Origin: Candidatus Peregrinibacteria bacterium
GTDB taxonomy: Bacteria > Patescibacteriota > Gracilibacteria > UBA1369 > LOWO2-01-FULL-3
Direction of reading: 5' to 3'
Length of the DNA stretch: 64,000 nt
Assembly: GCA_030592015.1 (NCBI GenBank)
Contig: JAUUZY010000004.1
Span: forward strand, 6,905 to 70,904
The position numbers and the translations under genes are program-made. Shown piece after piece: positions 2-17,943 of this stretch. The notes beneath the pieces are model-generated. The model was not told where the DNA came from. It did no database searches and saw nothing but the letters and a program-made list of their open reading frames with translations. The stretch's first letter is position 1; each line of letters begins with the position of its first letter.

Positions 2-532
2 ATTTCCATCGATACATACAAAGCAAAACTCGCAGATAAAGCATTAAAAGAAGGAGCAAACATAATTAACGACGTGACAGGACTAAGAGGGGACAGGGAC
101 ATGGCGGAAATTATCGCAAAACACAAATGTCCGGTAATAATAATGTACTCAAAAGACAAAACAGCTCGAACAACAGTAAAAAAGAAAAAATATACAGACG
201 TAATCGCTACGATAGAAAAATTCTTCAAGCAACAAATTAAAAAACATGGAATCAAAAAATCTCAAATAATCATAGATCCTGGAATGGGACAATTCATAAG
301 TGCTATACCAAAATACAGTTACGAAATATTGGCCAGACTCGGAGAGTTGAAAAAGCTGAGATACCCTATACTCGTCGGGGTTTCACGAAAGTCATTCCTA
401 GGAGGAGGTGTAGAATCAAGAGAGAAAAAAGGGCTCGTGGCTAACGCTATTGCATATCTTAACGGAGCAAGTATAATTCGAACCCACGATATAGAGGGGA
501 CAAAAAAATTCCTAGATAACCTAAACAAATAA
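2..532 (+). CDS. folP: dihydropteroate synthase, C-terminal part (5' end lies outside the window)
   Basis: Frame 2 is open from the window edge. The translation ISIDTYKAKLADKALKEGANIINDVTGL...GVSRKSFLG...IIRTHDI matches pterin-binding DHPS motifs. The GVG at 74 in the ORF track is internal. The gene heads a folate operon. Confidence 0.85.
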   Translation: MSIDTYKAKLADKALKEGANIINDVTGLRGDRDMAEIIAKHKCPVIIMYSKDKTARTTVKKKKYTDVIATIEKFFKQQIKKHGIKKSQIIIDPGMGQFISAIPKYSYEILARLGELKKLRYPILVGVSRKSFLGGGVESREKKGLVANAIAYLNGASIIRTHDIEGTKKFLDNLNK

Positions 533-882
533 TGCCAAATCTAAGCTTAAGTACTGCATTTCATTTCGCAGCATCACACTTCCTAACAAAATATCATGGA
601 AAATGTGAAAATCTGCACGGGCACAATTACAAAATTGTAGTCAGTATACATGGGCCAATAAAAGAGGATGGAATGGTAATAGACTTCAAAATCATAAAAG
701 ACATAGTAAACGAAAGAGTGATTGATAAACTCGACCACACACATCTAAACGACACAATAGACAATCCTTCCGCAGAAAATCTGGCAATATGGATCTGGGA
801 CAAAATAAAAGACGACCTACCACTAGCAAAAATTGCGGTTTACGAAACAGAAAATTATTATGCAGAATACAGTGGAGAATAA
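532..882 (+). CDS. 6-carboxytetrahydropterin / 6-pyruvoyltetrahydropterin synthase family protein (COG0720) in the folB position
   Basis: 116 aa with CENLHGHNYKIVV (Cx3HGH zinc motif) and a DHTHLND motif, typical of the QueD/PTPS fold. The TAATG junction overlaps the folP stop. It sits between folP and folK, where folB normally lies. Confidence 0.75.
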   Translation: MPNLSLSTAFHFAASHFLTKYHGKCENLHGHNYKIVVSIHGPIKEDGMVIDFKIIKDIVNERVIDKLDHTHLNDTIDNPSAENLAIWIWDKIKDDLPLAKIAVYETENYYAEYSGE

Positions 883-1339
883 TACAATTTACTTGGGACT
901 GGGCTCAAACATGGGAAACAGAGAAAAGTTCTTGAAAAACGCAATACAAGAGTTAAGTAACATAATCAAAATAGAGAAAAAGTCATCAATATACGAAAGC
1001 AAAGCAGTAGAATACGAAGATCAAGACGATTTTCTCAACATGGCAATAAAAGGAAGGACAAAATTGTCAGCAAAAGGGCTAATAGAAAAGATTAAGGAGA
1101 TAGAGAAAAAGCTTGGACGAGAGAAAACAATAGACAAGGGGCCACGAAAAATAGACATAGACATACTATTCTACAATGAAGAAATAATTGAGGAAGAAGG
1201 GCTAAAGATTCCACATCCCGCAATACAAGAAAGAAGTTTCGTGCTAGAACCATTAGCCGAAATAGAAGGTGAATTCATACATCCAAAACTAAAAGAAACA
1301 ATAAACACATTACTAATACAATGGACAAAGAAAAAATAG
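860..1339 (+). CDS. folK: 2-amino-4-hydroxy-6-hydroxymethyldihydropteridine pyrophosphokinase (HPPK)
   Basis: IYLGLGSNMGNREKFL...GPRKIDIDILFY...PHPAIQERSFVLEPL are HPPK signatures. I prefer the ATG at 860 (MQNTVENN) over the ORF-track start at 833, which lies deep inside the previous gene. Confidence 0.85.
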   Translation: MQNTVENNTIYLGLGSNMGNREKFLKNAIQELSNIIKIEKKSSIYESKAVEYEDQDDFLNMAIKGRTKLSAKGLIEKIKEIEKKLGREKTIDKGPRKIDIDILFYNEEIIEEEGLKIPHPAIQERSFVLEPLAEIEGEFIHPKLKETINTLLIQWTKKK

Positions 1340-1872
1340 AAAAATTGATAGGGGAACTCCTAACAGAGATAGGGGAGGACACCGAAAGAGAAGGGCTGAA
1401 AGAAACTCCCAGAAGGATAGCAAAATCATACGAGAAATTATTTGGAGGATATTCAAAAAACCCAGAAGATTTCGTCACACAATTTGACGGAGAAGATTAT
1501 GATGAAATGATCATATGTAAAAACATAGATTTCTATTCAAATTGCGAACATCACATGCTTCCATTCTTCGGGAAAGTACACATTGGATATATTCCGGACA
1601 AAAAAATCATAGGACTTTCAAAACTACCAAGAATAGTAGAAATGTTTGCAAGAAGACTACAAAATCAAGAAAGACTCACAACACAAATTGCAAATACAAT
1701 AAGTAAAATACTGAAACCAAAAGGGGTAGGAGTAGTAATCGAGGCACAGCACCTGTGCACAATGGCAAGGGGAGTAGAAAAACAAAATTCCAGCATGATA
1801 ACTTCCTCCTGCAACGGATTATTCAAAAACAACTCAAAAACAAGAAGTGAATTTTTAAATCTAGTTGGATGA
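1321..1872 (+). CDS. folE: GTP cyclohydrolase I
   Basis: The CEHHMLPFFGKVHIGYIP and QERLTTQIA motifs are classic FolE type 1. The gene overlaps the folK end. Confidence 0.9.
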   Translation: MDKEKIEKLIGELLTEIGEDTEREGLKETPRRIAKSYEKLFGGYSKNPEDFVTQFDGEDYDEMIICKNIDFYSNCEHHMLPFFGKVHIGYIPDKKIIGLSKLPRIVEMFARRLQNQERLTTQIANTISKILKPKGVGVVIEAQHLCTMARGVEKQNSSMITSSCNGLFKNNSKTRSEFLNLVG

Positions 1873-2429
1873 TTCTCCTAATCGACAATTACGACTCATT
1901 TACATACAACCTCTATCAGCAACTCGAGACATTAGGAGCAAAAGTCATCGTAAAAAAACATGACAAAATCACTCTAAAAGAAATAGAAAAGCTTGTTCCC
2001 TCAAAAATCATTATTTCACCAGGACCTAAGGCTCCAAAAGACAGCGGAATCTCGATTTCTGTGATAAAAAAATTCTACAAAAAGTTGCCAATACTAGGAG
2101 TATGTCTTGGGCACGAATGTATCGGAGAAATTTTCGGAGCAAAGATAGTTCAAGCAAAAAAAATACTTCATGGAAAAACTTCAGAGATCTTTCATGAGAA
2201 AAAAGGAATATTCAAGCGAGTAAAGTCACCATTCAAGGCAGCAAGATACCATTCTCTAGCAATAGATAGAGTTCCAAAAGGTTTTAAACTAACTGCATGG
2301 AGCAAAGATAAGGAAATAATGGGAATCCAGCATGAAAAATATCCACTTCATGGAATTCAATTTCATACGGAATCATTTATGACAGAGTATGGAAACAAAA
2401 TAATCAGAAATTTTCTCAATGAACTATAA
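1869..2429 (+). CDS. pabA: aminodeoxychorismate/anthranilate synthase component II (glutamine amidotransferase)
   Basis: MILLIDNYDSFTYNLYQ...LGVCLGHE...GIQFHTES gives the class I GATase triad (Cys, His, Glu). ATGA overlap with folE. Confidence 0.8.
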   Translation: MILLIDNYDSFTYNLYQQLETLGAKVIVKKHDKITLKEIEKLVPSKIIISPGPKAPKDSGISISVIKKFYKKLPILGVCLGHECIGEIFGAKIVQAKKILHGKTSEIFHEKKGIFKRVKSPFKAARYHSLAIDRVPKGFKLTAWSKDKEIMGIQHEKYPLHGIQFHTESFMTEYGNKIIRNFLNEL

Positions 2430-3672
2430 AACCATAAAAAACATAGATCCACTAAAATTTTTCGCAAAACTATCCAAAGAAGAAAAAAACGTCTGTTTTC
2501 TACATAGCTTTAGCAAAAATGGATGGAAAACAACAATCGCATGGAACCCAAAAGAAAAATTCAAATACAAAATGGGGGACAAAGAGAACTCAATCGAAAC
2601 ATTCAAAAAATTCAGTAAAAAAAACGCAAAGAAAGGAAGAAAATTAATCGGATATTTCTCATACGACATAGGATATGAATTGCATCAAATAAAAAAAACA
2701 GCAAAAGATGATTTAAGGCTACCGGACATCCTATTCTACGCATTCGACAACTGGATCACATTCGAAAAAAACCAGGCAAGAGTTCAAGAAAAATTCTATA
2801 AAGAGCTAGAAGAAATAAATAAAAGAAAAATCTCACCCACCAATAAAACTCCAAAAAGCAAAAACTTCAAAGCAACAATTAGCAAAGAAAAATACAACAA
2901 AGCCTACAAAAAAATAAAAAATTACATCAAGAAAGGGGACATATATCAAATAAACTACACACATAGACTAGAAGCCAGTAGCGAAATCTCAGCAAGAAAA
3001 TTATTCCTAAAAGTAATAAAAGAAAATAAAGTAGATCATCTCGCATACATGGAAGGAGAAGGATTCGAAATACTAAGCGCATCCCCTGAAAGATTTGTGA
3101 AAATAAAAGACAGGAAAATAGAAACCTGCCCAATAAAAGGGACTCGTCCACGAGGAAAAGCAAAAAAAGAAGATGAAAAATTGAGGCAAGAACTACTCGA
3201 CAGCGAAAAAGAAGCAGCAGAATTGAATATGATCACAGACCTACTCAGAAATGATCTAGGGAAAATATCTAAAATCGGAACAGTGAAGGTAAAAGCAAAC
3301 AGACTAGTACAAAAGTGCCCAACAGTCTGGCACACATACAGCAAAATCACAGGAGTAATAGACAAGAAGACATCAAACCTAGACGCGTTGATATCAATGT
3401 TGTCAGGAGGATCAATCACCGGATGCCCAAAAAAAAGAGCAATGGAAATAATCGACGAACTAGAAAATAAGACAAGAAATATCTACACAGGAGTAATTGG
3501 ATTCATAAATCCAAATCAAGACCTGGACTTTAATATCGCAATTCGTACAATAATAAAGAAAGAACAAAAATTACACCTACAAGTAGGAGGAGGAATCGTT
3601 CTTGACTCGACAAACAAAGCTGAATTTAAAGAGACATTTGATAAAGCCAAATCGTTCATGAAAATCCTATGA
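2419..3672 (+). CDS. pabB: aminodeoxychorismate synthase component I
   Basis: The chorismate-binding domain is recognisable: SPERFVKI, GTRPRG, ELNMITDLLRNDLG, SITGCPKKRAMEIIDELE, GGGIVLDS. Its position between pabA and pabC in a folate operon favours PabB over TrpE. Confidence 0.8.
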   Translation: MNYKTIKNIDPLKFFAKLSKEEKNVCFLHSFSKNGWKTTIAWNPKEKFKYKMGDKENSIETFKKFSKKNAKKGRKLIGYFSYDIGYELHQIKKTAKDDLRLPDILFYAFDNWITFEKNQARVQEKFYKELEEINKRKISPTNKTPKSKNFKATISKEKYNKAYKKIKNYIKKGDIYQINYTHRLEASSEISARKLFLKVIKENKVDHLAYMEGEGFEILSASPERFVKIKDRKIETCPIKGTRPRGKAKKEDEKLRQELLDSEKEAAELNMITDLLRNDLGKISKIGTVKVKANRLVQKCPTVWHTYSKITGVIDKKTSNLDALISMLSGGSITGCPKKRAMEIIDELENKTRNIYTGVIGFINPNQDLDFNIAIRTIIKKEQKLHLQVGGGIVLDSTNKAEFKETFDKAKSFMKIL

Positions 3673-4439
3673 TTATTTTATTCAACAATAAGTTCATCAC
3701 AAAAGCCAACGCGAAAATTTCGTTATTTTCCGAAGCTGTCATGTATGGCTATGGAGTTTTTGAAACAGTCAGAACCCACGACAAAAAAATATTCAAAGGC
3801 AAAGAACATACAAACAGACTTTTTCAGTCAGCAAAACTTCTAAAACTAAAAATAAAACACAAAAAGCCGGAAATTCTAAAAATGATGGAAAAAGTGGCAA
3901 GGAAATCTCCACACAAGAATCAAAAAATAAAAGTAATAGCTATAGAAGAGGGGATTTACATAATTTCAACAAAAGCCCCAATCTACAAAAAACTCAAAGA
4001 AAAAGGGGTCAGCTGCAAAACTATAGTAGCGCACAGAGAGCTACCCAAAGCGAAATCCTTATCCTATCTAAGCTCATACATGAGCCACAAAGAAGCGACA
4101 AAGTCCGGATACTATGAAGCTATACTCATAGACGAAAAGGGAGAAGTATACGAAGGAGCATATTCAAACATATTTTGGTTCAAAGGAAATACACTTTGTA
4201 CACGAAAGGAAGAAGTCCTCGAGGGCATAATACGACAAACAATAATCAACAATTCTCCATTCAAAATCAAATTCAAAAATATCAAAATAAAAGAACTTTT
4301 AAAGAAAAAGGAGATTTTCATGACCCAAAGCGTGAGCGAAATATTGCCAATTACAAGAATAGACAAAACAAAAATAGGAAACGGCAAAGTAGGGGAGAAG
4401 ACAAAGGAAATAATTGATATCTTCAAACAAGTTAAGTAA
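3669..4439 (+). CDS. pabC: aminodeoxychorismate lyase / class IV aminotransferase family
   Basis: A 256-aa fold-type IV PLP protein (GYGVFETVRT...H..RL; lysine region KSLSYL; EGIIRQ). ATGA overlap with pabB. Function is assigned from operon context. Confidence 0.65.
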   Translation: MIILFNNKFITKANAKISLFSEAVMYGYGVFETVRTHDKKIFKGKEHTNRLFQSAKLLKLKIKHKKPEILKMMEKVARKSPHKNQKIKVIAIEEGIYIISTKAPIYKKLKEKGVSCKTIVAHRELPKAKSLSYLSSYMSHKEATKSGYYEAILIDEKGEVYEGAYSNIFWFKGNTLCTRKEEVLEGIIRQTIINNSPFKIKFKNIKIKELLKKKEIFMTQSVSEILPITRIDKTKIGNGKVGEKTKEIIDIFKQVK

Positions 4440-4464
4440 AATACAAAAAAATAACAAAAAGCAC

Positions 4465-5847
4465 ATGACAGATTCAAAAAAAGGTTCATCAATTTTTAAA
4501 AGGCTAGCAATTGTGTTACTGGCATCTTTCATATTAACCTTGGTAACTTCAGCTGGCACAACATTGGCAGCTGCTGACACCTGCTATTGGGTAGGATTGG
4601 CCGATGCAAACTGGGACGTTGCAGGAAACTGGGACACTACTAGTTCAGGAGGGGGAGGGGGTGACTGCGATGGAGGGACATATCCAGGATCAGACGATTC
4701 CGCAATTTTTGACTCCGGTAACATTGCAAATGCAACCCTAAACGTGAACACTGTAGGGACAATGACTATGTCATCAGGATTTACGGCATCAGTTACAGCA
4801 AGTTATGCAGGAACAACAACATTTAGTGGAGTTTTTACACAGGCAGATGGAACATTCAATGCAGGAAGCAATACTGTAAGCTATAACAGCACCATAAACC
4901 TTACAGGAGGAACATATGATGTCGAAACAGCAACACTTATATCAAATTACACAGGTGCCAATGCAGTTTATATGAACGGAGGCACACTAGACGCTTCAAC
5001 AGCAGACGTAGATCTGAATGGAACAGCCTCTGCTGCCAGCTATCTTTTTAATATAGACAATGGGACCTTCACAGCTCCAGGAAGTGCTAATAGTTTTACT
5101 ACTGCCGACAGTATAGACATAACTCCACCAGGCATATTTGATGCAAACAATGGAACCATTATATTTGATGGCACAGATCTAACAACCTTAGTTGGTGCAG
5201 AGACAACCTTCCATAATATAACATTTAGTATGCCAAGTGGAATTGCACGAACATACTGGCCTATAACTCTTGATGGAGATTTCAAAATAACAAGTAGTGT
5301 CTATGAAGGAAACACATTTGCAATAAATTTAGGAGGAGACTTCATAACAAGTGGAACAGGCTCATTCACACCAAATACAAGTACAATAAACATGAACGGG
5401 ACAGATCAAGCAATTTACGGAACTAATAGCTTCTATAACCTAACAAAGCAAACTGCAGGAACATGGGAATTTGAGGCTGGAGAAACACAAACAGTAACAG
5501 GAACATGGACTGCAGAAGGGACAGGAATAGAAGCTGGAGCACTATTTCTTCGCTCAACAGTGTCAGATAGTACGTGGACCATAAACCCACAAAGCACAAG
5601 AACCCTAGATTATATAGACGTTAAAGACAGCATCAACAGCAATGCAGCAGAAATCACATTATCAGGAAAATATGCCAATGATTCAGGAACTAATACAAAC
5701 TGGAACTTTGCAAGCTCCATTCCTTTTCAAGCAGGAGCTGCACTAATTCCAGAATTCTCTACATACATGCTAATGATCACATTCCTAATCGGAATGGGAA
5801 TGATTCAGAAAAAATTCAAACCTGAAATTAAACAAACAAGGTACTAA
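4465..5847 (+). CDS. secreted repeat (beta-helix-like) surface protein with a PEF-type C-terminal sorting signal
   Basis: ATG at 4465 gives a signal peptide (MTDSKKGSSIFKRLAIVLLASFILTLVTSAGTTLAAA). The mature protein begins DTCYWVG..ANWDVAGNWD, resembling the start of autotransporter-associated beta-strand repeat proteins. The body is Gly/Thr/Asn-rich. The C-terminus IPEFSTYMLMITFLIGMGMIQKKFK has motif, TM helix and basic patch. Confidence 0.65.
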   Translation: MTDSKKGSSIFKRLAIVLLASFILTLVTSAGTTLAAADTCYWVGLADANWDVAGNWDTTSSGGGGGDCDGGTYPGSDDSAIFDSGNIANATLNVNTVGTMTMSSGFTASVTASYAGTTTFSGVFTQADGTFNAGSNTVSYNSTINLTGGTYDVETATLISNYTGANAVYMNGGTLDASTADVDLNGTASAASYLFNIDNGTFTAPGSANSFTTADSIDITPPGIFDANNGTIIFDGTDLTTLVGAETTFHNITFSMPSGIARTYWPITLDGDFKITSSVYEGNTFAINLGGDFITSGTGSFTPNTSTINMNGTDQAIYGTNSFYNLTKQTAGTWEFEAGETQTVTGTWTAEGTGIEAGALFLRSTVSDSTWTINPQSTRTLDYIDVKDSINSNAAEITLSGKYANDSGTNTNWNFASSIPFQAGAALIPEFSTYMLMITFLIGMGMIQKKFKPEIKQTRY

Positions 5848-6464
5848 GCCTTTTTCCGGCCATTTAATCTGAAAAGAACAACTAGCACCAACACAAACAA
5901 TACAAAAGCAACAGCAACAAATACTGCATCAGTATAATATTTTGCCAAAAGCTCCTCATTGGCACCAAAGTGATATCCCAAAAGAGCCAAAACAGTCACC
6001 CAGCTTCCAGATCCCAAAAGGGTAAAAAGTAAAAAGTAAAAATAATTCAATCTCACAAAACCTGCAGGGATAGAAATCAATTGTCTAACAGCAGGAACAA
6101 ACCGTCCTAAAAAAGTAGAAGAATAACCATACTTAGTAAAATAATCCTCAGACTTTTCAATTTTCTTCTTGTTTATCAAAAATATCTTTGCAATCTTAGT
6201 ATCAGCAAGGTTATAAACAATGGTCCTACCCAAAGACATAGCCAAAACATAGTTGATAGTCGCACCAATAAGGCTCCCCAAGGCACCAAAGAACACCACT
6301 AAATAGATATTCATTTCACCCTTAGAAGCAAGATAAGCAGCCGGAGGAATCACAATCTCAGAGGGAAAAGGAACAAATGAACTTTCAATAGTCATAAGAA
6401 TCAAAACCCCAGTATAGCCGAGATCGCTAGTGATATTTAAAAAAAACTGAATCAATTCGTGCAT
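5844..6464 (-). CDS. DedA family membrane protein
   Basis: 206 aa with ESSFVPFPSEIVIPPAAYLA and RFVPAVRQLISIPAG motifs and a multi-TM profile typical of the DedA/SNARE-associated family. Confidence 0.8.
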   Translation of the reverse strand: MHELIQFFLNITSDLGYTGVLILMTIESSFVPFPSEIVIPPAAYLASKGEMNIYLVVFFGALGSLIGATINYVLAMSLGRTIVYNLADTKIAKIFLINKKKIEKSEDYFTKYGYSSTFLGRFVPAVRQLISIPAGFVRLNYFYFLLFTLLGSGSWVTVLALLGYHFGANEELLAKYYTDAVFVAVAFVLFVLVLVVLFRLNGRKKA

Positions 6465-6526
6465 AAAAGTTCTAAAATTAGTAAGATAAAGATATATAAA
6501 ATTAAAAAACTAATCAACAAACATAA

Positions 6527-7468
6527 ATGTTTAAAAAAATAAAAAGCAAGGGCCTCAAGCAATTCATAATCAGACTAGTAGTGTTCCTCGGAGTATATTT
6601 AACAATATCCAGAGGATACGGCTGGTTCAAAGAACTACTAAATCAAAAAGAAATAACAGTAAATGACGGATATTTATCATTTATAATTTATTTCCTAATA
6701 ATAATATTTATATACGCACGAAGAGACAAAATAAAAGAAATTAGCGCATACAAAAACAACATAATTCAAACAGTATTGTTTTCAATAGGCGCAGTTATCA
6801 TGTTCGTGCTTCCATACACAACAATTGCACAAGCAGTACAACTAAACGAAACCGTACTTTACTTCTTGTTCTATGGTATCGGACAATTCTTCATTTTTCT
6901 CGCAGTATTCAATCTCGATTTTTTCACAAAAAAATTCAACGAAGAAATACTTATAATACTGCTCATACTAATAATGTCCGCAGCCACCCCCATATTGATA
7001 GAGATTTATTGGGCATACTTTTTTATACCAATTAAATTTGGCGTAGAAACAGCATTGTCAATTCTCCCTGCAGACGTAGCTATAGATACGACAGGACAAG
7101 GCTTTAAGGTACAACTGGGAAGCTTTTCCGGGTCCGTAGGACCTACATGCTCAGGATTATTTTCAATGAGCACATTCACATTCCTATTCGTTACTAGTCT
7201 TGTTCTTCTAAAAAGACAAAACAAAATAAGCAAACTAAAGACAGCAATTGCTTACTTCTCAGGAATATTCATTTTATACCTATTAAATATCTTCAGAATA
7301 ATAGTTATTATGGCTGTAGGAGCGTTCTATTCACAAAAACTCGCAATAGACCTTTTCCACGAATACCTCAGCTCAATATTCTTGATGGGAATATTTATAT
7401 TCTATCTATACAAAATCATCCCTAGGCTTACAGTTGGAAAAAAACACACAAGAAATAAGAAAACATAG
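6527..7468 (+). CDS. exosortase/archaeosortase family protein (putative)
   Basis: 313 aa, about 7-8 predicted TM helices. An ordered Cys...Arg...His triad sits in the expected contexts: VGPTCSGLFSM (C208), LLNIFRIIVIM (R257), DLFHEYLSS (H278). A gene with a PEF+TM+basic tail lies 680 nt upstream. Confidence 0.6.
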   Translation: MFKKIKSKGLKQFIIRLVVFLGVYLTISRGYGWFKELLNQKEITVNDGYLSFIIYFLIIIFIYARRDKIKEISAYKNNIIQTVLFSIGAVIMFVLPYTTIAQAVQLNETVLYFLFYGIGQFFIFLAVFNLDFFTKKFNEEILIILLILIMSAATPILIEIYWAYFFIPIKFGVETALSILPADVAIDTTGQGFKVQLGSFSGSVGPTCSGLFSMSTFTFLFVTSLVLLKRQNKISKLKTAIAYFSGIFILYLLNIFRIIVIMAVGAFYSQKLAIDLFHEYLSSIFLMGIFIFYLYKIIPRLTVGKKHTRNKKT

Positions 7469-7509
7469 AAATTCGCAGTTGAGCTAAAAGATGCCACTAC
7501 AAATTTCTA

Positions 7510-7596
7510 TGGTGCCCAGGGAGGGAATCGAACCCTCACTCTATTGCTAGAACGGGATTTTGAATCCCGCGCGTCTACCAATTCCGCCACCTGGGC
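7510..7596 (-). tRNA. tRNA-Leu (anticodon CAA), CCA encoded
   Basis: The reverse complement folds as a class II tRNA: acceptor GCCCAGG/CCTGGGC, anticodon stem CGGGA/TCCCG with loop TTCAAAA, a long variable arm, and T-arm GAGGGTTCGATTCCCTC. Confidence 0.9.
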
Positions 7597-7631
7597 AAAG
7601 TTCTAAATAAAACTACCAAAGATTAGAAGCA

Positions 7632-7660
7632 TTGAAAAGATATTATACAAGATATATGAT
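7632..7660 (+). promoter_or_regulatory. candidate sigma70-type promoter upstream of obg
   Basis: TTGAAA, a 17-nt spacer, then TATGAT, 28 nt upstream of the obg ATG. Such matches arise by chance in AT-rich DNA. Confidence 0.3.
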
Positions 7661-7687
7661 ATAAACTAATAAAGTTAATAAAATCAA

Positions 7688-9001
7688 ATGTTCTGCGACG
7701 AAACTAAAATAAAGGTAATTGCCGGAAATGGCGGAGATGGATGCGTAAGTTTTCGTAGAGAAAAATTCGTACCAAGAGGGGGACCAAACGGAGGAGACGG
7801 AGGAAGTGGGGGAGACATGATAGTAAAAGTGAATCCAAACCTAAACACACTCAGTCATTTGAACGCACAAAAAGTATACAGGGCTCAAAAAGGAGTAAAC
7901 GGAAAAGGCAAGAATATGCATGGTGCCAATTCAGACGCACGTATACTTGAAGTTCCAAAGGGAACGATAATTTTCAACGAAGACAAGTCAATGGTGCTCG
8001 CAGACATGGATAAAGAAGAAAAAGAAATAGTAATAGTAAAAGGAGGAAAGGGGGGACTGGGAAATGCAAGATTCGTAAGTTCAACACATCAAGCACCAAG
8101 ATTCGCAGAGAATGGAGAGCCGGGAGAAGAAAAAGTGATCATTTTTGAACTAAAAATGGTAGCAGACTTAGGAATAATTGGACTACCATCTGCAGGAAAA
8201 TCGACACTGATCTCAGTAATAAGTAACGCAAAGCCAAAAATAGCCGCATACCACTTCACAACCCTAATACCAAACCTAGGTGTAGTAAATATGGGAAAAC
8301 ACGGCGGATCAGCAAATGATTCATTCGTAGTAGCGGACATTCCGGGACTAATAAAAGGAGCAAGTGCAGGAAAAGGCCTAGGGCATCAATTTCTCAAACA
8401 CATAAGCAGAACAAAACTTCTAGTCCACCTTTTAGACGGCTCACTGGAAGACCCAGCAGCAGATTACAAAACAATAAACAAAGAGCTAAAGGAATTTGAT
8501 AAAGATTTAGCAAAAAGAGAACAAATAGTAGTAATCAACAAAATCGACCTCTTAAGTGAAAAACAGATAAAGGAAATTGTTACAAAAGTGAAAAAGATAA
8601 GTAAGAAGACAACAATATTTACAATTTCAGCTGTAACACATGAAGGACTACAACCATTGTTGTTCGAAATTTCAAAAACTCTAACAAAAATCAAAAAATC
8701 TGAACGAAAAGAAAAGAAAAAAATCAAACAACCAGGAATTCCAGTACTAAAGCCACACTTAGAAAAAACATCATTCATAATAGAAAAAGTTATTCGCAAA
8801 AAAACACGTACAATATTCCGTGTAGAAGGAAAAAGGATAGAACAATTGGTAGTAATGACGAGTATTGGGAACCTGGAAGGATTGGAAAGGATATATCATT
8901 TTATGGAAAAAATGGGTATAAAAAAGTCAGTTGAAGCACACGGAGCAAAAACTGGAGACGTAATAAGAATAAAAGACAAAGATATCCCTTACAGAAAGTA
9001 A
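7688..9001 (+). CDS. obg: GTPase Obg/CgtA
   Basis: MFCDETKIKVIAGNGGDGCVSFRREKF is the Gly-rich Obg fold. G-motifs GLPSAGKST, DIPGLI and NKID are present, plus a C-terminal OCT-like domain. Confidence 0.95.
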   Translation: MFCDETKIKVIAGNGGDGCVSFRREKFVPRGGPNGGDGGSGGDMIVKVNPNLNTLSHLNAQKVYRAQKGVNGKGKNMHGANSDARILEVPKGTIIFNEDKSMVLADMDKEEKEIVIVKGGKGGLGNARFVSSTHQAPRFAENGEPGEEKVIIFELKMVADLGIIGLPSAGKSTLISVISNAKPKIAAYHFTTLIPNLGVVNMGKHGGSANDSFVVADIPGLIKGASAGKGLGHQFLKHISRTKLLVHLLDGSLEDPAADYKTINKELKEFDKDLAKREQIVVINKIDLLSEKQIKEIVTKVKKISKKTTIFTISAVTHEGLQPLLFEISKTLTKIKKSERKEKKKIKQPGIPVLKPHLEKTSFIIEKVIRKKTRTIFRVEGKRIEQLVVMTSIGNLEGLERIYHFMEKMGIKKSVEAHGAKTGDVIRIKDKDIPYRK

Positions 9002-9555
9002 TGAAAATAATCGTAGGACTCGGAAATATAGGCGAAAAGTATCTAAAAACGCGACACAATTGCGGATTTTTGGCACTAGATCAGTTTGAAATGGACATGG
9101 AAAAAGAGAACATAGAATTAAAATGGAAGAAAGACAAAAAAATGAAGGCATATATAACAAAATTTGATTACAAAGGAGAAACAGTACTATTAGTAAAACC
9201 TACAACATTAATGAATCTATCAGGAGAAGCAGTTAGCAAAATCCTGAATTTCTACAAAGAAAAACCTGAAAACCTAATCGTCATATACGACGATATCGAT
9301 CTGCCACTAGGAACAATTCGCTGCAAAGACAGCGGATCAGCAGGAACACATAACGGAATGAAATCAATAATACAGGAGATTGGAAGCAAAGATTTTAAAA
9401 GAATAAGAATAGGAATTGAAAGCAGGGGAGAACTGACACCTGCACAACAAGATCTACACAGTTTTGTACTTTCAGACTTTACAGAGAATGAATTTTCAAT
9501 GATTTTCGAGGCTCTAAAAGACGCCTCAACAAAGCTAAAAGAAACTTTGGCTTGA
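9001..9555 (+). CDS. pth: peptidyl-tRNA hydrolase
   Basis: MKIIVGLGNIGEKYLKTRHNCGF...DDIDLPLGTIRCKDSGSAGTHNGMKSI are canonical Pth motifs. TAATG overlap with obg. Confidence 0.9.
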   Translation: MKIIVGLGNIGEKYLKTRHNCGFLALDQFEMDMEKENIELKWKKDKKMKAYITKFDYKGETVLLVKPTTLMNLSGEAVSKILNFYKEKPENLIVIYDDIDLPLGTIRCKDSGSAGTHNGMKSIIQEIGSKDFKRIRIGIESRGELTPAQQDLHSFVLSDFTENEFSMIFEALKDASTKLKETLA

Positions 9556-9607
9556 CCAAAAGCATAAATTTGCCTAAATTAACTAGGCAAAAATCTAAGA
9601 ATTAAAC

Positions 9608-9997
9608 ATGTTCGCAATAGTTGAAACAGGAGGAAAACAATACAAAGTAGAAAAAGGAACAACTCTTGAAATCGAAAGATTGAAAGAAAAAGAAGGAGCT
9701 AGTATAAACCTAGACCAAGTGTTGCTTATAAGCGATAAAGAAGATACAAAAGTGGGAAATCCATTTATCAGCGGAGCAGTTGTTTCAGGAAAAATCGTAG
9801 AACACAAAAGAGGAGTAAAAATAGTTGTGTTTAAGATGAAAGCAAAAAAGAGATACCAAAAAACACAAGGACACAGACAAGAACTAACTGTAGTAGAAAT
9901 AACAGATATTAAATCTAGCGGAGCAAAGGCAACACCTGCAAAACCTGCAGCAGCGAAAAAAGCCCCAGCAAAGAAAGTAGAAGAAAAAGAAGATTAA
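9608..9997 (+). CDS. rplU: 50S ribosomal protein L21 with a Lys/Ala/Pro-rich C-terminal tail
   Basis: MFAIVETGGKQYKVEKG...GHRQELTVVEI is L21. About 25 extra residues (SSGAKATPAKPAAAKKAPAKKVEEKED) follow. Confidence 0.9.
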   Translation: MFAIVETGGKQYKVEKGTTLEIERLKEKEGASINLDQVLLISDKEDTKVGNPFISGAVVSGKIVEHKRGVKIVVFKMKAKKRYQKTQGHRQELTVVEITDIKSSGAKATPAKPAAAKKAPAKKVEEKED

Positions 9998-10941
9998 ATT
10001 TCTCTCAACTTAATTAAAACATTATTCAGATCTTTAGGAAGATCGGATTTTACTTTTACATGTTTAGAACCAACAAAGTCAGAAAACTCCAAAGTATGTG
10101 CATGTAAAAATTGTCTCTTAAGGAAAAACTTCTCCTTAAGCTTGTTATTTATATTGCGATTGCCGTAAACGCTATCACCAACCACAGGATGACCAATAGC
10201 CGCCATATGAACACGTATCTGATGCGTTCTTCCTGTTTTTATCTCAACATCAAGCAAACTAACAGACTGCTTCTCATTCAATTCAAACTCTTCCAAAACT
10301 TTATAGACAGAAACCGCTTCTTTCCCCTCTCTAGCGGCAGTAACTCCCATTTTTTTACGATTTTTTAAATCTCTGGCAATAGGGGAGTCAATTATTCCCT
10401 CATCATGCTCCAAAATGCCGTTAACCAATGCCAAATAATGTTTTTCTACATTCCTTCCTTTGAATTCACCAACAAAATAATCACGCGCTTTCTTATTCTT
10501 CACCACAATCAATAATCCAGAGGTATCCTTATCAAGCCTATGAACTATCCCAGGTCGCAATTTGTCCAATGTACTGGAAACCTTAGACAAAACGCCATGA
10601 GCCACAGTTCCGGTAGAATGACGCCCCTCTTCAGTAGGATGAACAACCATACCTGCAGGCTTTTCTATAATAAAATAATCATCAGTCTCTCTAAGCACAG
10701 GCAAATCAATCTCCTCAGCCTCCAAGACAAATTTTTTCTCCTCAATATCCTTAACCAAAATCTCATCACCAATCGCCAAAGTGTAGCTTGCCTTTCCCTT
10801 TGTGTCATTAAGCAAAATCTTACCGGACTTAAGCAAAGCCTGAACCTTTGACCTGGAAAGATCAGAAAGCTCCATAGTCAGAAATTTATCAAGCCTGAGT
10901 CCAATAAATCCACTATCCTCTTTTATCAGTATTTTTTTCAT
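9994..10941 (-). CDS. rluD: RluA-family 23S rRNA pseudouridine synthase (RluD-like)
   Basis: An N-terminal S4 domain (RLDKFL) and the catalytic HRLDKDTSGLLIV motif are present, plus RTHQIRVH. Confidence 0.85.
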   Translation of the reverse strand: MKKILIKEDSGFIGLRLDKFLTMELSDLSRSKVQALLKSGKILLNDTKGKASYTLAIGDEILVKDIEEKKFVLEAEEIDLPVLRETDDYFIIEKPAGMVVHPTEEGRHSTGTVAHGVLSKVSSTLDKLRPGIVHRLDKDTSGLLIVVKNKKARDYFVGEFKGRNVEKHYLALVNGILEHDEGIIDSPIARDLKNRKKMGVTAAREGKEAVSVYKVLEEFELNEKQSVSLLDVEIKTGRTHQIRVHMAAIGHPVVGDSVYGNRNINNKLKEKFFLKRQFLHAHTLEFSDFVGSKHVKVKSDLPKDLNNVLIKLREI

Positions 10942-11851: not shown

Positions 11852-13039
11852 ATGAAAGCAGATTCCAAAACACTACTAGAAAGAGGAACAGTTGACGTAA
11901 TAGTTAAAAAAGAGCTGGAAGCAAAGCTAAATTCAGGAAAATCATTAAAAGTTAAATTGGGAATAGATCCATCTGGAGCAGATTTACACATTGGACACAT
12001 GGTAGTTATTAAAAAACTACGTGAATTTCAAGAAGCCGGACACCACATACAACTATTATTTGGGAATTTCACAGGACAAATAGGGGACCCCACTGACAAA
12101 TTAAGCTCAAGACCTGTAAAAACACAGAAAGAACTAGAAAAAAATGCGAAAAAATACCTCGAACAGGCAGGAAAAATTTTAGACACAAAAAATGTTGAAG
12201 TGGTATGGAATGCAGATTGGTTAGGGAAGTTGAATTTCGCAGATGTAGTAAAACTTGCACAAGTATTTACAGTACACCAGATGCTGGAAAGAGATATGTA
12301 CCAAGAACGTATCAAAAAAGAACAAGCAATCTACCTTCACGAATTCTTATACCCTCTAATGCAGGGCTACGACTCTGTTGCACTGGAATCAGACCTAGAA
12401 TTAGGAGGAACAGACCAAACATTCAATCTCTTGGCTGGAAGAACAGTTCAAAAAGCATATGGACAAACTCCTCAAAACGTCCTAACCGTGCCATTACTTA
12501 TAGGGACGGACGGAAAGGACAAAATGGGAAAAAGTCTCGACAACTACATTGGAGTAAATGAAAAACCAAGCGAAATGTATGGAAAAACTATGTCCATAAC
12601 AGATCAACAAATCGTAAATTATTTTGAACTTGCCACATATGTGACAATGGAAGAAATCGAGAAAATAAAACAAGCACTAAAAGAAGGAGAAAATCCGAGA
12701 AATCTAAAAATGCACCTTGCAAGAGAATTAGTTACCCTTTATCACGATGAAGAAGCTGCAAAAATGGCTGAAAAAGAATTCATAGAAGTTTTTGCAAACA
12801 AAGGAACTCCTGAAGACATAGAATTAGTAAAAATGGACAAAGATAAATGGAATATCGTAAATTTAATCGCAGAAACAGGCCTAACAAATTCAAAAAGTGA
12901 AGCAAGACGACTGGTAGAAGGTGGGGGAGCGAGAGTTAACGGAGAAAAAGTAGAAGAAATTACAGAAGAAATAGATATTAAAGAAGAAATTCTTTTACAA
13001 GTGGGCAAAAGAAAATTCCTAAAAGTAGTCGCAAAATAA
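11852..13039 (+). CDS. tyrS: tyrosine--tRNA ligase
   Basis: HIGH (DLHIGH) and KMSKS-like (KMGKS) motifs and a C-terminal S4-like domain (SKSEARRLVEGGGARVNGEKV). Confidence 0.9.
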   Translation: MKADSKTLLERGTVDVIVKKELEAKLNSGKSLKVKLGIDPSGADLHIGHMVVIKKLREFQEAGHHIQLLFGNFTGQIGDPTDKLSSRPVKTQKELEKNAKKYLEQAGKILDTKNVEVVWNADWLGKLNFADVVKLAQVFTVHQMLERDMYQERIKKEQAIYLHEFLYPLMQGYDSVALESDLELGGTDQTFNLLAGRTVQKAYGQTPQNVLTVPLLIGTDGKDKMGKSLDNYIGVNEKPSEMYGKTMSITDQQIVNYFELATYVTMEEIEKIKQALKEGENPRNLKMHLARELVTLYHDEEAAKMAEKEFIEVFANKGTPEDIELVKMDKDKWNIVNLIAETGLTNSKSEARRLVEGGGARVNGEKVEEITEEIDIKEEILLQVGKRKFLKVVAK

Positions 13040-15084
13040 TGCTGAACAAAAACCTCTCCACAATACTCAGAACTACAAAAAGGCATCTGGCAAAACTAGA
13101 ATATTTAGGCGTGAATACTGTAAAAGAGTTTTTATTGTATTTTCCAAGAACATATAGCGACAGCTCAGAGTACACACAAATAATAGACGTACGTACAGAT
13201 GAAGTTAACGTGATAAAAGGAAAAATAAGCAGTCTCTTCAACATAAACACTAAATACGGAAAAAAGATAACAAAGGGAGTTTTTACAGATGACAGCGGAT
13301 CAATACAGGTGATTTGGTTCAATCAAGGACATCTCACAAAATTCCTACCAAGAAACAAAGAAATTATATTAAGTGGAAAAGCAAAGTTTGCATTCGGAAA
13401 AATAAGCCTGCAAAGTCCATCATATGAAATCATCAAGCCATATGAAGAACAAATACACACAGGCAGAATAACGCCTGTATATCATGAAACAGAGGGGATC
13501 AGTTCCAAGTGGATGCGAGAAAAAATCAAACCACTAGTAGATGAGTGGACAGATTTATTTCAAGAATATATGCCACAAGAAATATTGGACGAACACAAAT
13601 TGATAGACTACAAGACAGCAATCAAAAATGTTCATTTCCCGGAAAGCGATGAAATGCTTGATAGAGCCAGGGAAAGATTGGCATTTGACGAACTATTCCT
13701 TTTGCAACTCAAAGTACTTCAAAAGAAATGGCATTGGCAAAACATTTCCTCCGAACAAGCAAAAAGCATAGAACTAAAAAACGATGATATAAAAACATGC
13801 ATAGACTCCCTCTCATTTGAATTAACGGGTGCACAAACAAGAGTTCTAAAAGAGATACTGGACGACCTTCAAAAGAACTTCCCAATGACCCGACTAATAC
13901 AAGGAGACGTAGGATCAGGAAAAACAATAGTAGCAGCACTAGCAGCACTAAACGCAGTAAAAAATGGATACCAAGTCTGCATAATGGCACCCACAGAAAT
14001 CCTAGCCAAGCAGCACTATCAAACATTCATAAAAACCTTACAAAAATATAATCTCAACATTCAATTCATCGCAGGAAGCACCACAAAAAAACAAAAAGAA
14101 AACATTGTAAGACAAATGAAAACAGGAACAGCAGATTTAATCATCGGAACACATGCATTAATTCAGGAAAAAATAGGGTTCAAAAATCTCGGACTGGCAA
14201 TCATAGATGAGCAACATAGATTTGGAGTAAAACAAAGAGATATATTAAAAAGTCATGGAGCACCACATCTACTATGCATGACAGCTACACCAATACCTCG
14301 AACTCTAGCAATCACAATCTATGGAGACCAAGATTTATCAATAATTGATGAAATGCCAAAAGGACGACAAGAAATATACACAAAAGTTGTCCCCGAAAAA
14401 AAACGGATCGATGCGTACAGATGGATAGAAGACCAAGTAGCAAAGGGAAGACAAGCATTTATAGTTTGCCCACTCATAGATGAATCTGATGTATTGGAAG
14501 TAAAATCAGTACTAAAAGAATATGCATTCCTGAGCGAACACATTTTTCCAAGTTTAAAGCTGGGGTTACTGCACGGAAAACTAAAACAAGAAGATAAAGA
14601 CGAAATAATGGAAGATTTTAAAAACAACAATCTAAATATACTTGTATCAACATCCGTAATCGAGGTGGGAATCGATATACCAAACGCCACTATTATGCTT
14701 ATAGAAGGCGCTGAGCGCTTCGGGCTCTCACAATTACACCAATTCAGAGGTCGAGTCGGTAGGGGAGAGCACAAATCATACTGCTTCCTCTTCACAGGCG
14801 CACTTTCAGAGGAGGGGACTACTCGAATGAAAGCAATGGAAAAACACGCAAGCGGCTTTAAGCTCGCAGAAATTGATCTAAACCTAAGAGGACCGGGAGA
14901 GATTTACGGAATAAAACAAAGTGGAATACCTGATTTAAAGATGGCAAGCTTGACAGATAGCAAAACTATAGAGAAAGCTAGAAAAAGTGCAGAGAAAATT
15001 ATCGCAAAAGATCCAAAATTAAAAAACCTTCCAATGATTGCAGAAAAAATTGCAGAAATGTATGAAATCTATGTAAAAGATTAA
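13039..15084 (+). CDS. recG: ATP-dependent DNA helicase RecG
   Basis: An N-terminal wedge/OB region and SF2 helicase motifs (GDVGSGKT, DEQHRFGV, TATPIPRTL, QLHQFRGRVGRG). 681 aa. Confidence 0.9.
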   Translation: MLNKNLSTILRTTKRHLAKLEYLGVNTVKEFLLYFPRTYSDSSEYTQIIDVRTDEVNVIKGKISSLFNINTKYGKKITKGVFTDDSGSIQVIWFNQGHLTKFLPRNKEIILSGKAKFAFGKISLQSPSYEIIKPYEEQIHTGRITPVYHETEGISSKWMREKIKPLVDEWTDLFQEYMPQEILDEHKLIDYKTAIKNVHFPESDEMLDRARERLAFDELFLLQLKVLQKKWHWQNISSEQAKSIELKNDDIKTCIDSLSFELTGAQTRVLKEILDDLQKNFPMTRLIQGDVGSGKTIVAALAALNAVKNGYQVCIMAPTEILAKQHYQTFIKTLQKYNLNIQFIAGSTTKKQKENIVRQMKTGTADLIIGTHALIQEKIGFKNLGLAIIDEQHRFGVKQRDILKSHGAPHLLCMTATPIPRTLAITIYGDQDLSIIDEMPKGRQEIYTKVVPEKKRIDAYRWIEDQVAKGRQAFIVCPLIDESDVLEVKSVLKEYAFLSEHIFPSLKLGLLHGKLKQEDKDEIMEDFKNNNLNILVSTSVIEVGIDIPNATIMLIEGAERFGLSQLHQFRGRVGRGEHKSYCFLFTGALSEEGTTRMKAMEKHASGFKLAEIDLNLRGPGEIYGIKQSGIPDLKMASLTDSKTIEKARKSAEKIIAKDPKLKNLPMIAEKIAEMYEIYVKD

Positions 15085-15447
15085 ACTCAAGAAAAAGAGC
15101 AAATAACGCAAAAAGAGGATATTGCCCAAGAAAGAAAAGACGAAGCAAACTACATCTTTTTTTTTAAAACGCCTGAAATCGAAGGTTTTGAGTACACGGC
15201 TTAGCCTAAAGCAAAACAGGACATGGGGGATTAAAAAACAGCATTTTTAGTCGAAACTTTAATCGACAGCAAAAACCAGAAATTTCAACAAAGTTCCAAA
15301 AATAAAAACGAAAAACAAAAACAATTCAAAGACAGAACAAAGTCCACGAAACAACACTACTCTACTCCATGTCAATATATGTTTGTACAAGATACATTGT
15401 GCAAAGTTATATAAGTCCGCAAACCTAACTCCCCTAGAGATCAAATA

Positions 15448-16800
15448 CTAGGCATTGTCAATTTCCGCCCAAAAATCATTAGTTTTTCTAGATTCAAAGC
15501 TTGAATGGACAAATTGAGCCTTTGGCGAATTCTTTGTCATAGTTATAACATTCAAGCTCTCAACTTTGTCCTCAATAGACAAGGTATCCGCAACAGCAAG
15601 CACCTCAACCAAAGAAGTTAATACCCTTCTGTCGACAGAGGACAAGCTATATCCCCTATCCTTCCCCTCCCCAACTAGATTTTCGGCTAAAGAAACAAGT
15701 TCTTCATGATTAATCTTAGATATATTGGTATCAGGAATTCGTTTAATACTTTCCGTAACATAAGCGTCTAAATGGCACTTCCCTGCTGCAACAACGATGT
15801 CCTCAGCAGAAGTATATGGCCCTAAATCATCACCAGAGTACGGGGTTTTTAAAGTAAAGCTATAACTAACACTTCCGGAAGAGTCAACTTCCTTATAAAT
15901 ATCGATAGGAAAAAAGAAATCCCCTGCCTCAATAGTCGCTTTATCTTTATGAAATTCTATTTTATAAGAAGAACTATCATGAACACCTTGCCCAATACTA
16001 GACTCTATAGCTTGCCTCTGCTCTGCCACATCCTCAATAGGCTGAGAATAAGATCTAACTTCAGCAACAACAATAACTTCTTCTTCTTCTTCTTCTTCCT
16101 CTTCCTCCTCAAAATCAAGAACCACGTCCTCTTCCCCAATTTCCTGCCATATCTCCAAAACCTCCTGGACTTCTTCCTCATCCTCAGACCTTGCAAGCTC
16201 CTCATCAACAAGGAGATTCAATTGTTTTGTATATTCCTCAGAGGAAATATCTTCATTAGCATTCAAAACCTTCAATTTCTCCATAACTATTCCACGAAAC
16301 TTAAGCATTTTCCCACCCCTAATCAACAATTCACCATCATCACTCTTAGAATATTCTTCACTTTTGCTATACGACCTAACAAGGAACTTCAATAACTTTT
16401 GCTCAGCTCTAAACCTTTTAAAAGCAACATCAAAATACACTTCACCATCCCCTTCTCCAGCAACTTCACCCTTCCAATACTTAGTTAATACAACATTCTT
16501 AAATTGAGCAAACTCAGCTTTATCACCAGCTTCCATAGCCCCATCAAATTGCTTTTTTAGGACCTCATTGGAATATATTTCATCCAATAGCTCAGGACGA
16601 AACCCAGGAAAAGCATCAAGCTTTGAAACAATTCTCAAATAAGGATTTGCCTCAAGGCTGGCTAAGTGCTCAACAGTTTCTTCATCAGTATCCTTAAGAT
16701 CCAACTTAAAACTATCAGAAAAGATTTGTGAATCACCTACAAAAGATGGCAATACCTCCCGATCGCTCACTCCATCAGGCAATTTTCCAAAATCATTCAT
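15448..16800 (-). CDS. hypothetical, strongly acidic cytoplasmic protein with a poly-Glu run
   Basis: A 450-aa ORF with coding-strand composition like neighbouring genes. It has no TM segment or signal peptide. I recognise no family. Confidence 0.5.
   Translation of the reverse strand: MNDFGKLPDGVSDREVLPSFVGDSQIFSDSFKLDLKDTDEETVEHLASLEANPYLRIVSKLDAFPGFRPELLDEIYSNEVLKKQFDGAMEAGDKAEFAQFKNVVLTKYWKGEVAGEGDGEVYFDVAFKRFRAEQKLLKFLVRSYSKSEEYSKSDDGELLIRGGKMLKFRGIVMEKLKVLNANEDISSEEYTKQLNLLVDEELARSEDEEEVQEVLEIWQEIGEEDVVLDFEEEEEEEEEEEVIVVAEVRSYSQPIEDVAEQRQAIESSIGQGVHDSSSYKIEFHKDKATIEAGDFFFPIDIYKEVDSSGSVSYSFTLKTPYSGDDLGPYTSAEDIVVAAGKCHLDAYVTESIKRIPDTNISKINHEELVSLAENLVGEGKDRGYSLSSVDRRVLTSLVEVLAVADTLSIEDKVESLNVITMTKNSPKAQFVHSSFESRKTNDFWAEIDNA
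16078..16110 (-). repeat. in-frame GAA/GAG trinucleotide run encoding about 11 consecutive Glu
   Basis: The plus strand reads ttcttcttcttcttcttcttcctcttcctcctc. Confidence 0.9.
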
Positions 16801-16817
16801 TGTAAATATTATTTATA

Positions 16818-17879: not shown

Positions 17880-17943
17880 AAGGTAAAATTAACAAATAAA
17901 GTTCGACTAATTTATACAGGAAATAGCAGAAGCTGTAAAAGAC

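Follow-up and report, generated by a model that had tools for sequence, protein, structure and literature searches.

A candidate exosortase/archaeosortase-type sorting pair with a VPEF-type C-terminal signal in a Peregrinibacteria contig

INTRODUCTION

The exosortase/archaeosortase family is defined by its pairing with a tripartite C-terminal signal whose motif abuts a hydrophobic helix, and its members share nearly invariant Cys, Arg, and His residues in the C-terminal helices, which are suspected to form a catalytic triad (Haft 2023, bioRxiv 10.1101/2023.06.07.544157). In the experimentally studied archaeosortase ArtA, activity depends on Cys173, Arg214, and Arg253, and the substrate is cleaved, losing its helix, and later attached to a lipid (PMC9263693, PMC6098224). 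Whether archaeosortases and exosortases are one-step transpeptidases is an open question, even for ArtA (Haft 2023, bioRxiv 10.1101/2023.06.07.544157). A stretch of 64,000 nucleotides from a Candidatus Peregrinibacteria bacterium (contig JAUUZY010000004.1, positions 6,905 to 70,904), hereafter the window, probably encodes a sorting pair of this type, consisting of an enzyme from an unnamed clade and a C-terminal signal for which we use the name VPEF-CTERM. The DedA gene that lies between the enzyme gene and the nearest signal-bearing cargo gene is most likely a neighbor only, and the mechanism of the pair is a proposed one.

The candidate phyla radiation (CPR), or Patescibacteria, accounts for a large share of bacterial diversity, and many of its members are thought to live attached to host cells. 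To our knowledge, CPR cells lack an outer membrane. Little has been learned about how they attach adhesins to the cell surface. Sortase A, S-layer genes, and large extracellular proteins of the FG-GAP type are reported in the Peribacteria genome paper, which names no exosortase (PMC4736985). In the literature searched, no paper tied exosortases or archaeosortases to CPR/Patescibacteria. Four things appear to be undescribed so far: the enzyme clade as such, the VPEF-type signal that goes with it, its set of cargo proteins, and its presence in CPR.

RESULTS

Family membership and putative active site of the enzyme

An initial annotation of the window, made from the letters alone, had named a polytopic membrane protein as a candidate exosortase or archaeosortase, to be checked against Pfam PF09721 and the corresponding NCBIfam models. 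Its scores exceed the curated family cut-offs, with 34.6 bits for PF09721 (25.7 required) and 45 bits for TIGR04178 (23 required), and by these profile matches the protein, hereafter the window enzyme (Table 1), is a member of the exosortase/archaeosortase family. The family of the enzyme is not new, as relatives already carry the label 'exosortase/archaeosortase family protein' in some sources.

The three residue contexts quoted earlier, VGPTCSGLF (C208, codon 7148..7150), NIFRIIV (R257, 7295..7297), and LFHEYL (H278, 7358..7360), were all read correctly. Among 145 representatives with at most 50% mutual identity, C208, G210, R257, A273, and H278 were 100% conserved, and C208, R257, and H278 were invariant also in 14 close relatives. 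These three residues lie within the stretch matched by TIGR04178 (residues 204-298, profile positions 3-95), and their description as a family-type set was borne out by this position and by their invariance in the 145 diverse relatives. Cys208, Arg257, and His278 are the putative catalytic residues.

The hydropathy profile of the enzyme contains eight transmembrane (TM) segments, and the count of Lys and Arg is 22 in the inside loops versus 6 outside. An AlphaFold2 model built from a 14-sequence alignment (pLDDT 81, pTM 0.64) has helices that agree with the hydropathy profile. The topology predicted from hydropathy, the positive-inside rule, and the model helices has eight TM helices and places the N- and C-termini inside. 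Residues 184-204 are predicted to form a beta-sheet loop outside the cytoplasm that leads up to Cys208, and Arg257 and His278 are predicted at the outer ends of TM7 and TM8, with the triad located at the outer-leaflet ends of TM6-8. Foldseek comparison of the model with the PDB returned noise only (best E 0.18, TM-score 0.22).

An unnamed clade whose named members are nearly all from CPR bacteria

A word-indexed search gave the 14 close relatives of the window enzyme. When 1.84 billion cluster representatives were searched exhaustively with a profile, 2559 matched at E<=0.001, of which 155 had E<=1e-30; of the best 150 listed, almost every one is 295-330 amino acids (aa) long. TIGR04178 was matched by all 143 clade members scanned. 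Neither these 143 nor the 14 close relatives nor the window enzyme itself reached the cut-off of any named Xrt or Art subfamily. The top named subfamily for the window enzyme was XrtE (TIGR04162; 29.2 bits versus a cut-off of 150), with a match that covers only profile positions 66-289 of 516, and ArtC (TIGR03762, cut-off 100) gave no match to it at E<=1. Across the clade, XrtE was the commonest and strongest weak match (136/143, best E 9.4e-20), ArtC was matched weakly by 72 of the 143 members (best E 7.7e-19), and XrtA by about half of them with scores far under the XrtA cut-off. The distant clade member P0112 from locus L046 scored 30.8 bits against ArtC, for which 100 are needed.

The description of the enzyme as archaeosortase-like is right as to family membership and fails as to archaeosortase specificity, with no subfamily cut-off reached and the best weak match being to the bacterial XrtE, followed by ArtC. 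Because the matches to XrtE and ArtC are only weak and no true member of a named subfamily was found, the enzyme clade, as far as profile scores go, is unnamed and not specifically archaeosortase-like.

All named relatives of the enzyme come from CPR bacteria, namely, Peribacteria, Peregrinibacteria, Gracilibacteria, Magasanikbacteria, and Patescibacteria, with the exception of one short contig binned as WOR-3. The window Obg protein is 72% identical to Obg of a Peribacteria metagenome-assembled genome (L001).

PEF-containing tails of secreted proteins

Upstream of the enzyme lies the gene for cargo 1, a secreted protein of 460 aa. It has a Sec-type signal peptide at its N-terminus (MTDSKKGSSIFKRLAIVLLASFILTLVTSAGTTLAA|AD), repeats that resemble a beta-helix, and a sorting tail at the C-terminus, and no Pfam or NCBIfam domain was matched. 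The tripartite IPEF tail ascribed to cargo 1 by the initial annotation is real, but the KKFK given as its end is not the terminus, and the tail continues for 9 further residues. A second PEF-tailed paralog, cargo 2, which that annotation did not contain, was found in a scan of all open reading frames (ORFs) of the window; the end of its passenger is the same as in cargo 1, and the mature parts of the two proteins are 44% identical over 308 aa.

Eight aligned tails from the window and related loci share the consensus G-G-[VI]-P-E-F-x-x-[YF] and then run on through some 15 hydrophobic residues. The PEF itself does not vary among the eight, and 25-31 residues follow it. In 263 ORFs of at least 150 aa, drawn from the window and the non-redundant related loci through L033, PEF occurs 14 times overall, and 9 of these occurrences lie 25-31 residues from the C-terminus compared to 0.28 expected (Poisson P about 2e-11), a figure that is indicative only because the range of positions was picked after viewing the data. 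Eight of the nine C-terminal cases are [VI]PEF followed by a hydrophobic helix. The tails conform to the generic design of tripartite signals, with a motif abutting a hydrophobic segment, then basic residues, on proteins with N-terminal signal peptides.

The mature parts that bear the tail fall into five unrelated groups, the enzyme-less contig L037 included. The first group has the beta-helix-like repeats of the window proteins, the second has FG-GAP_2 repeats (L004, L031, and L033; 136-274 bits), and three further mature types without an assigned family occur in L009, L037, and L046. In other lineages, proteins homologous to the window's passenger module retain the ...DVKDSNN...GNNxGWNF end and differ after it, where they carry peptidoglycan-binding domains, PG_binding_1 (P0161), a T9SS C-terminal domain (P0164), or nothing (P0163). 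As passenger homologs carry peptidoglycan-binding or T9SS C-terminal domains at this place, the PEF tail fills the slot of other surface-retention devices.

Ten tail peptides and the whole cargo proteins of the window and L046 were scanned against NCBIfam release 20. The archaeal model TIGR03024 (arch_PEF_CTERM, cut-off 23) gave 13.9 bits for cargo 1 and 13.0, 12.7, and 16.0 bits for further tails, and there was no match for the other four window and neighbor-locus tails tested. An assignment to archaeal PEF-CTERM is not upheld by these 13-16 bits against a cut-off of 23, and the whole proteins missed the other curated models as well. Judged by these scores, the tail is a signal related to, yet distinct from, archaeal PEF-CTERM.

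Classic RRR or RRRK endings were present only in the tails of P0170 (L037) and of the L046 protein, and the latter (...NEVPEFGIIGAVLAVAAIGGFVIFRRRK) is a classic tripartite signal made of VPEF, a helix, and RRRK. As an isolated peptide, the L046 tail nominally passes the models for PEP-CTERM (16.7 versus 16) and LPXTG (18.5 versus 15.9), whose cut-offs are very low. Both assignments were rejected, and the matches were taken as generic to a helix plus Arg residues, because the whole L046 protein remains under those cut-offs. A profile of the eight tails, run against 5.8 billion proteins, gave 314 word-sharing candidates and one match, P0170 (GGGGGGVPEFSDYMLILTFLIAGYAMRRRIPE...), and this search is the source of one further example and not a census. 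On its contig, P0170 is adjoined by a second PEF-tailed secreted protein.

Linkage of tails to the enzyme gene in related loci

Related loci were drawn from 185,579 reference genomes, JGI metagenomes, and look-ups of single homologs, and they were scanned for C-terminal helices. PEF tails were found near an enzyme homolog in five other independent loci. The window has two tails, with gaps to the enzyme gene of 679 bp, measured from the cargo 1 stop to the enzyme start (680 nt in the initial annotation), and 43.6 kb. Two tails each were also present in L004 from Peregrinibacteria Bin_503 (gaps 3 bp and 1547 bp) and in the metagenome contig L031 (226 bp and 1738 bp). One tail was found in L009 from Peregrinibacteria Zod_Metabat.293 (gap 94 bp), in the metagenome contig L033 (3562 bp), and in L046, the locus of the distant clade member with a 515-aa enzyme (1624 bp). 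Reading the first 17 loci, Gracilibacteria-type ones included, with genetic code 25 gave no additional tails.

The enzyme of L046 (1..11548), P0112, carries an additional membrane region at its N-terminus and a linker rich in Lys and Glu. Its gene lies directly downstream of a cluster of glycosyltransferase and polysaccharide-deacetylase genes, which recalls the link of exosortase A to exopolysaccharide (EPS) genes, and the GC content is 29%. In L034, an fn3-containing protein (8468..10318, + strand) ends in LPGTG, a helix, and KNRKRK, a classic sortase-type LPXTG signal, and both sorting systems may coexist in this organism because the LPGTG protein and an exosortase homolog share the contig. 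In L044, an Rce1-like gene of the CPBP/CAAX protease family (12462..13100, - strand) is located 1.5 kb from the distant exosortase homolog P0175; this may correspond to an unfused XrtE pairing, as XrtE fuses an exosortase with such a protease.

L013 encodes a giant protein (12366..18539, + strand) of about 2050 aa in which no Pfam domain was confidently recognized, and an equivalent 2015-aa gene is present beside P0008. In these two related contigs, the giant gene is kept two genes downstream of the exosortase homolog. Secreted proteins with LTD, cohesin, or dockerin domains are encoded upstream; the one at 7560..8432 has a TM anchor and no PEF at its end.

DedA and YgjP-like neighbors

The DedA protein meets the VTT/DedA domain threshold (PF09335, 63.9 bits, cut-off 33.9) and scores 114.7 and 94.3 bits against the UptA models, under the equivalog cut-offs of 250 and 300. 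The divergent DedA-enzyme pair, together with the Obg order, is kept only in L007, L008, L015-L020, and L036, and throughout this subclade obg lies on the other side of the enzyme gene wherever the contig reaches. DedA was absent in L001, L002, and the tail-bearing loci L004, L009, L031, and L033, and none was called in the gene list of L046. The linkage of DedA is most simply explained as inherited gene order, because the pairing tracks the housekeeping gene obg in one subclade.

Cargo 2 is followed on its own strand, after 9 bp, by the YgjP-like metallohydrolase gene. The product shares 61% identity with its counterpart in Peregrinibacteria Bin_503 (L004), where the gene sits 8 kb from the enzyme homolog. 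In three other loci, a YgjP-like gene converges on the enzyme gene and overlaps its 3' end (L006, 10896..11399; L010, 4126..4725; L034, 1041..1595). The YgjP-like hydrolase is a possible accessory component of the system, or its position may reflect conserved gene order.

Gene coordinates and other features of the window

The standard genetic code gives a clean reading of the window, and the positions claimed earlier for the cargo, DedA, and membrane protein ORFs were all correct (Table 1). A promoter and terminator scan of 4300..7800 was uninformative, with counts not above those in shuffled sequence.

Table 1. Coordinates of the sorting-related features and their neighbors in the window
Feature	Position	Strand	Description
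Cargo 1 gene	4465..5847	+	460 aa; alternative start, upstream TTG at 4414
Cargo 1 sorting tail	5746..5844	+	Ending ...ALIPEF-STYMLMITFLIGMGMI-QKKFKPEIKQTRY; I-PEF (PEF, 5749..5757), helix STYMLMITFLIGMGMI at 5758..5805, then QKKFKPEIKQTRY at 5806..5844
DedA/VTT-family gene	5844..6464	-	Between cargo 1 and enzyme; ORF with PF09335 match
Enzyme gene	6527..7468	+	313 aa; predicted 8 TM helices; exosortase/archaeosortase family
YgjP-like (DUF45, HExxH) metallohydrolase gene	50380..51102	-	PF01863, 135 bits
Cargo 2 gene	51112..53850	-	912 aa; paralog of cargo 1 with PEF tail; scan of all window ORFs
Cargo 2 tail	51205..51213 (PEF codons)	-	...VPIPEF-SVYLLMLTLLIGMGFV-QSEFRLFAKDSVLK; ORF translation

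The window also contains a compact folate/pABA biosynthesis cluster (74..4439, + strand) with genes for the C-terminal part of DHPS, a QueD/PTPS-family protein, FolK, FolE, PabA, PabB, and a PabC-like class-IV aminotransferase, the DHPS gene running past the window start. Folate biosynthesis genes were not identified in Peribacteria genomes according to their genome paper (PMC4736985). An 838-aa membrane-anchored P-loop ATPase (35960..38476, - strand) is weakly similar to VirD4/TraD-type coupling proteins and CedD (E 1e-7 to 1e-9, far under the cut-offs).

DISCUSSION

Proposed mechanism and its weighing

In the mechanism proposed for the window pair, the cargo would be exported by Sec and kept in the membrane by its C-terminal helix. 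The PEF motif would come to lie at the outer-leaflet boundary, at the same membrane depth as the predicted active-site residues, where Cys208, flanked by Arg257 and His278, could attack the peptide bond at or near PEF, with removal of the helix. If the analogy with Haloferax ArtA holds, a membrane-lipid or cell-envelope nucleophile might then resolve the acyl-enzyme, and the adhesin-like passenger, with its beta-helix or FG-GAP repeats, would remain exposed at the surface of the single-membrane cell. The pairing of enzyme and tail is coherent because the nearest weak subfamilies, XrtE and ArtC, both recognize P-E motifs (VPEID and PEF).

Several observations weigh against such a pair. A nearby PEF tail was found at 6 of about 33 independent enzyme loci, most of them on short contigs, and several loci with 10-kb flanks had none (L002, L005, L006, L008, L012, and L013). 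Cargo 1 and the enzyme are not co-transcribed, since the DedA gene, convergent to cargo 1, intervenes. The basic part is weak in most tails, with 1-3 Lys followed by an extension of 8-12 residues, and most tails of Peregrinibacteria-type loci have no Arg cluster and instead a conserved K-x-[IVLM]-P-[NK]-[IF]-[SN] after the helix, an extension seen in L004, L009, L031, and the window. We know of no described sorting signal with such a post-helix extension. Scored as whole proteins, the window and L046 cargo missed every curated C-terminal signal cut-off. Searching the PDB by sequence and by profile gave no exosortase/archaeosortase structure on which the triad could be superposed.

Some of these points would suit a PEF tail that is a permanent, uncleaved TM anchor, with the exosortase homolog acting elsewhere and the adjacency incidental: at many enzyme loci PEF tails were absent within 10 kb, the tails have no Arg cluster and, scored in whole proteins, stay under the curated cut-offs, and neighbors in L013 and L035 end in plain TM anchors without PEF. 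We nevertheless consider this unlikely, as a permanent anchor would not need an invariant P-E-F at a fixed C-terminal distance across five unrelated families, six independent loci, the distant L046 included, have a tail gene and the enzyme gene 3-3600 bp apart, and in every studied member of the family the enzyme pairs with such tails (Haft 2023, bioRxiv 10.1101/2023.06.07.544157). If the tails are cleaved, the enzyme might still work by hydrolysis, with release or shedding of the proteins, instead of re-anchoring them to lipid or wall by transpeptidation. The transpeptidase question, open even for ArtA, leaves room for this, as does the finding that no lipid-transfer or wall-linking partner gene was consistently linked in the loci examined. 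Shedding seems rather doubtful in view of the adhesin-like cargo (FG-GAP and beta-helix-like repeats), which points to a role at the cell surface, of the retention devices that passenger homologs bear in the same slot, and of the ArtA substrates, which end up lipid-anchored (PMC9263693, PMC6098224).

The neighboring genes provide two more explanations. The initial annotation had suggested that DedA could be part of the module, and as a working part it might supply or flip the polyprenyl-phosphate or phospholipid that becomes the anchor; the gene is divergent from the enzyme gene at a distance of 62 bp, the pair recurs in the nine loci listed above, and the protein resembles the undecaprenyl-phosphate transporter UptA. 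This role is quite unlikely, because the pairing is limited to one subclade that shares the unrelated obg on the other side, DedA is missing at every other tail-bearing locus, the UptA equivalog cut-off is missed by a wide gap (114.7 versus 250), and DedA proteins are near-universal housekeeping proteins. The suggestion was not kept as the preferred one, and on gene order the window DedA is probably a housekeeping neighbor outside the sorting module. That a different protease, the YgjP-like HExxH protein, a rhomboid, or a CPBP protein, processes the PEF tails while the exosortase homolog has another role is highly improbable, even with the YgjP-like gene next to cargo 2, its homologs abutting the enzyme gene in L006, L010, and L034, and the Rce1-like gene near the distant homolog in L044. 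The YgjP-like translations, read directly by eye, show no signal peptide or TM helix, so these proteins could not reach a motif at the outer leaflet; their linkage is convergent with the enzyme gene and may be synteny, and it is the enzyme that bears the complete conserved triad of a family whose characterized members do this job.

Meaning for CPR cell surfaces

The reading of the window enzyme and the VPEF-type tails as a sorting pair has consequences for CPR biology, since the system probably determines the display of adhesins on these cells. The clade and its C-terminal tag would let the CPR surface proteome be predicted from sequence, and the exosortase catalogue would be extended by an enzyme/signal pair from cells generally described as outer-membrane-less. 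Nothing is overturned; a known principle is extended to a new lineage and a new motif. The compact 313-aa enzyme would serve the question whether exosortases are transpeptidases.

A further-reaching version, built on the ArtA analogy, is tentative and more speculative than the pairing itself: the VPEF tail and the mini-exosortase may covalently re-anchor adhesins with FG-GAP, beta-helix, or other passengers to membrane lipid and form the main display route for the host-attachment proteins of probably episymbiotic CPR cells. If true, lipid re-anchoring would be a bacterial counterpart of archaeal ArtA lipid anchoring in an ultra-small single-membrane bacterium. The K-x-x-P-N-I-S extension or the YgjP-like hydrolase could be lineage-specific additions to the mechanism.

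Comparison with known systems

Among described systems, ArtC (TIGR03762) with PEF-CTERM (TIGR03024) from methanogenic archaea belongs to the same superfamily, and in both systems a P-E-F motif abuts the hydrophobic helix. On the PEF-CTERM model, the window tail aligns to positions 1-17 and the L046 tail to all 25. The hosts of ArtC/PEF-CTERM are archaeal, whereas those of the present enzyme are CPR bacteria, and in comparison to PEF-CTERM the CPR tails add a preceding V/I with a Gly-rich linker, an aromatic residue at +3, and often K-x-x-P-N-I-S instead of the Arg cluster. The XrtE/VPEID-CTERM signal starts with V-P-E, as does the CPR signal, with VPEID in the former and VPEF in the latter. 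At about 516 aa, XrtE includes a fused CPBP-type protease domain; the 313-aa window enzyme corresponds to the exosortase half only.

ArtA with PGF-CTERM from Haloferax volcanii is likewise a polytopic cysteine enzyme in a single-membrane cell, acting on Sec- or Tat-exported substrates with tripartite tails. Its motif is PGF in contrast to PEF here, its archaeal anchor lipid is not available in bacteria, and the ArtA model was not among the matches listed for the window enzyme or its relatives. XrtA and XrtB with PEP-CTERM, from Gram-negative EPS producers, are of the same family and follow the same tripartite logic, with PEP in place of PEF. The clade member of L046 adjoins a glycosyltransferase cluster, as XrtA often does, whereas the window locus has no EPS genes. 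Sortase A with LPXTG is analogous and not homologous, sharing the tripartite design and the Cys/Arg/His chemistry. Its fold is unrelated, that of a monotopic beta-barrel enzyme acting outside the membrane, and LPXTG signals have a spacer before the helix, whereas the PEF motif of the window proteins abuts it.

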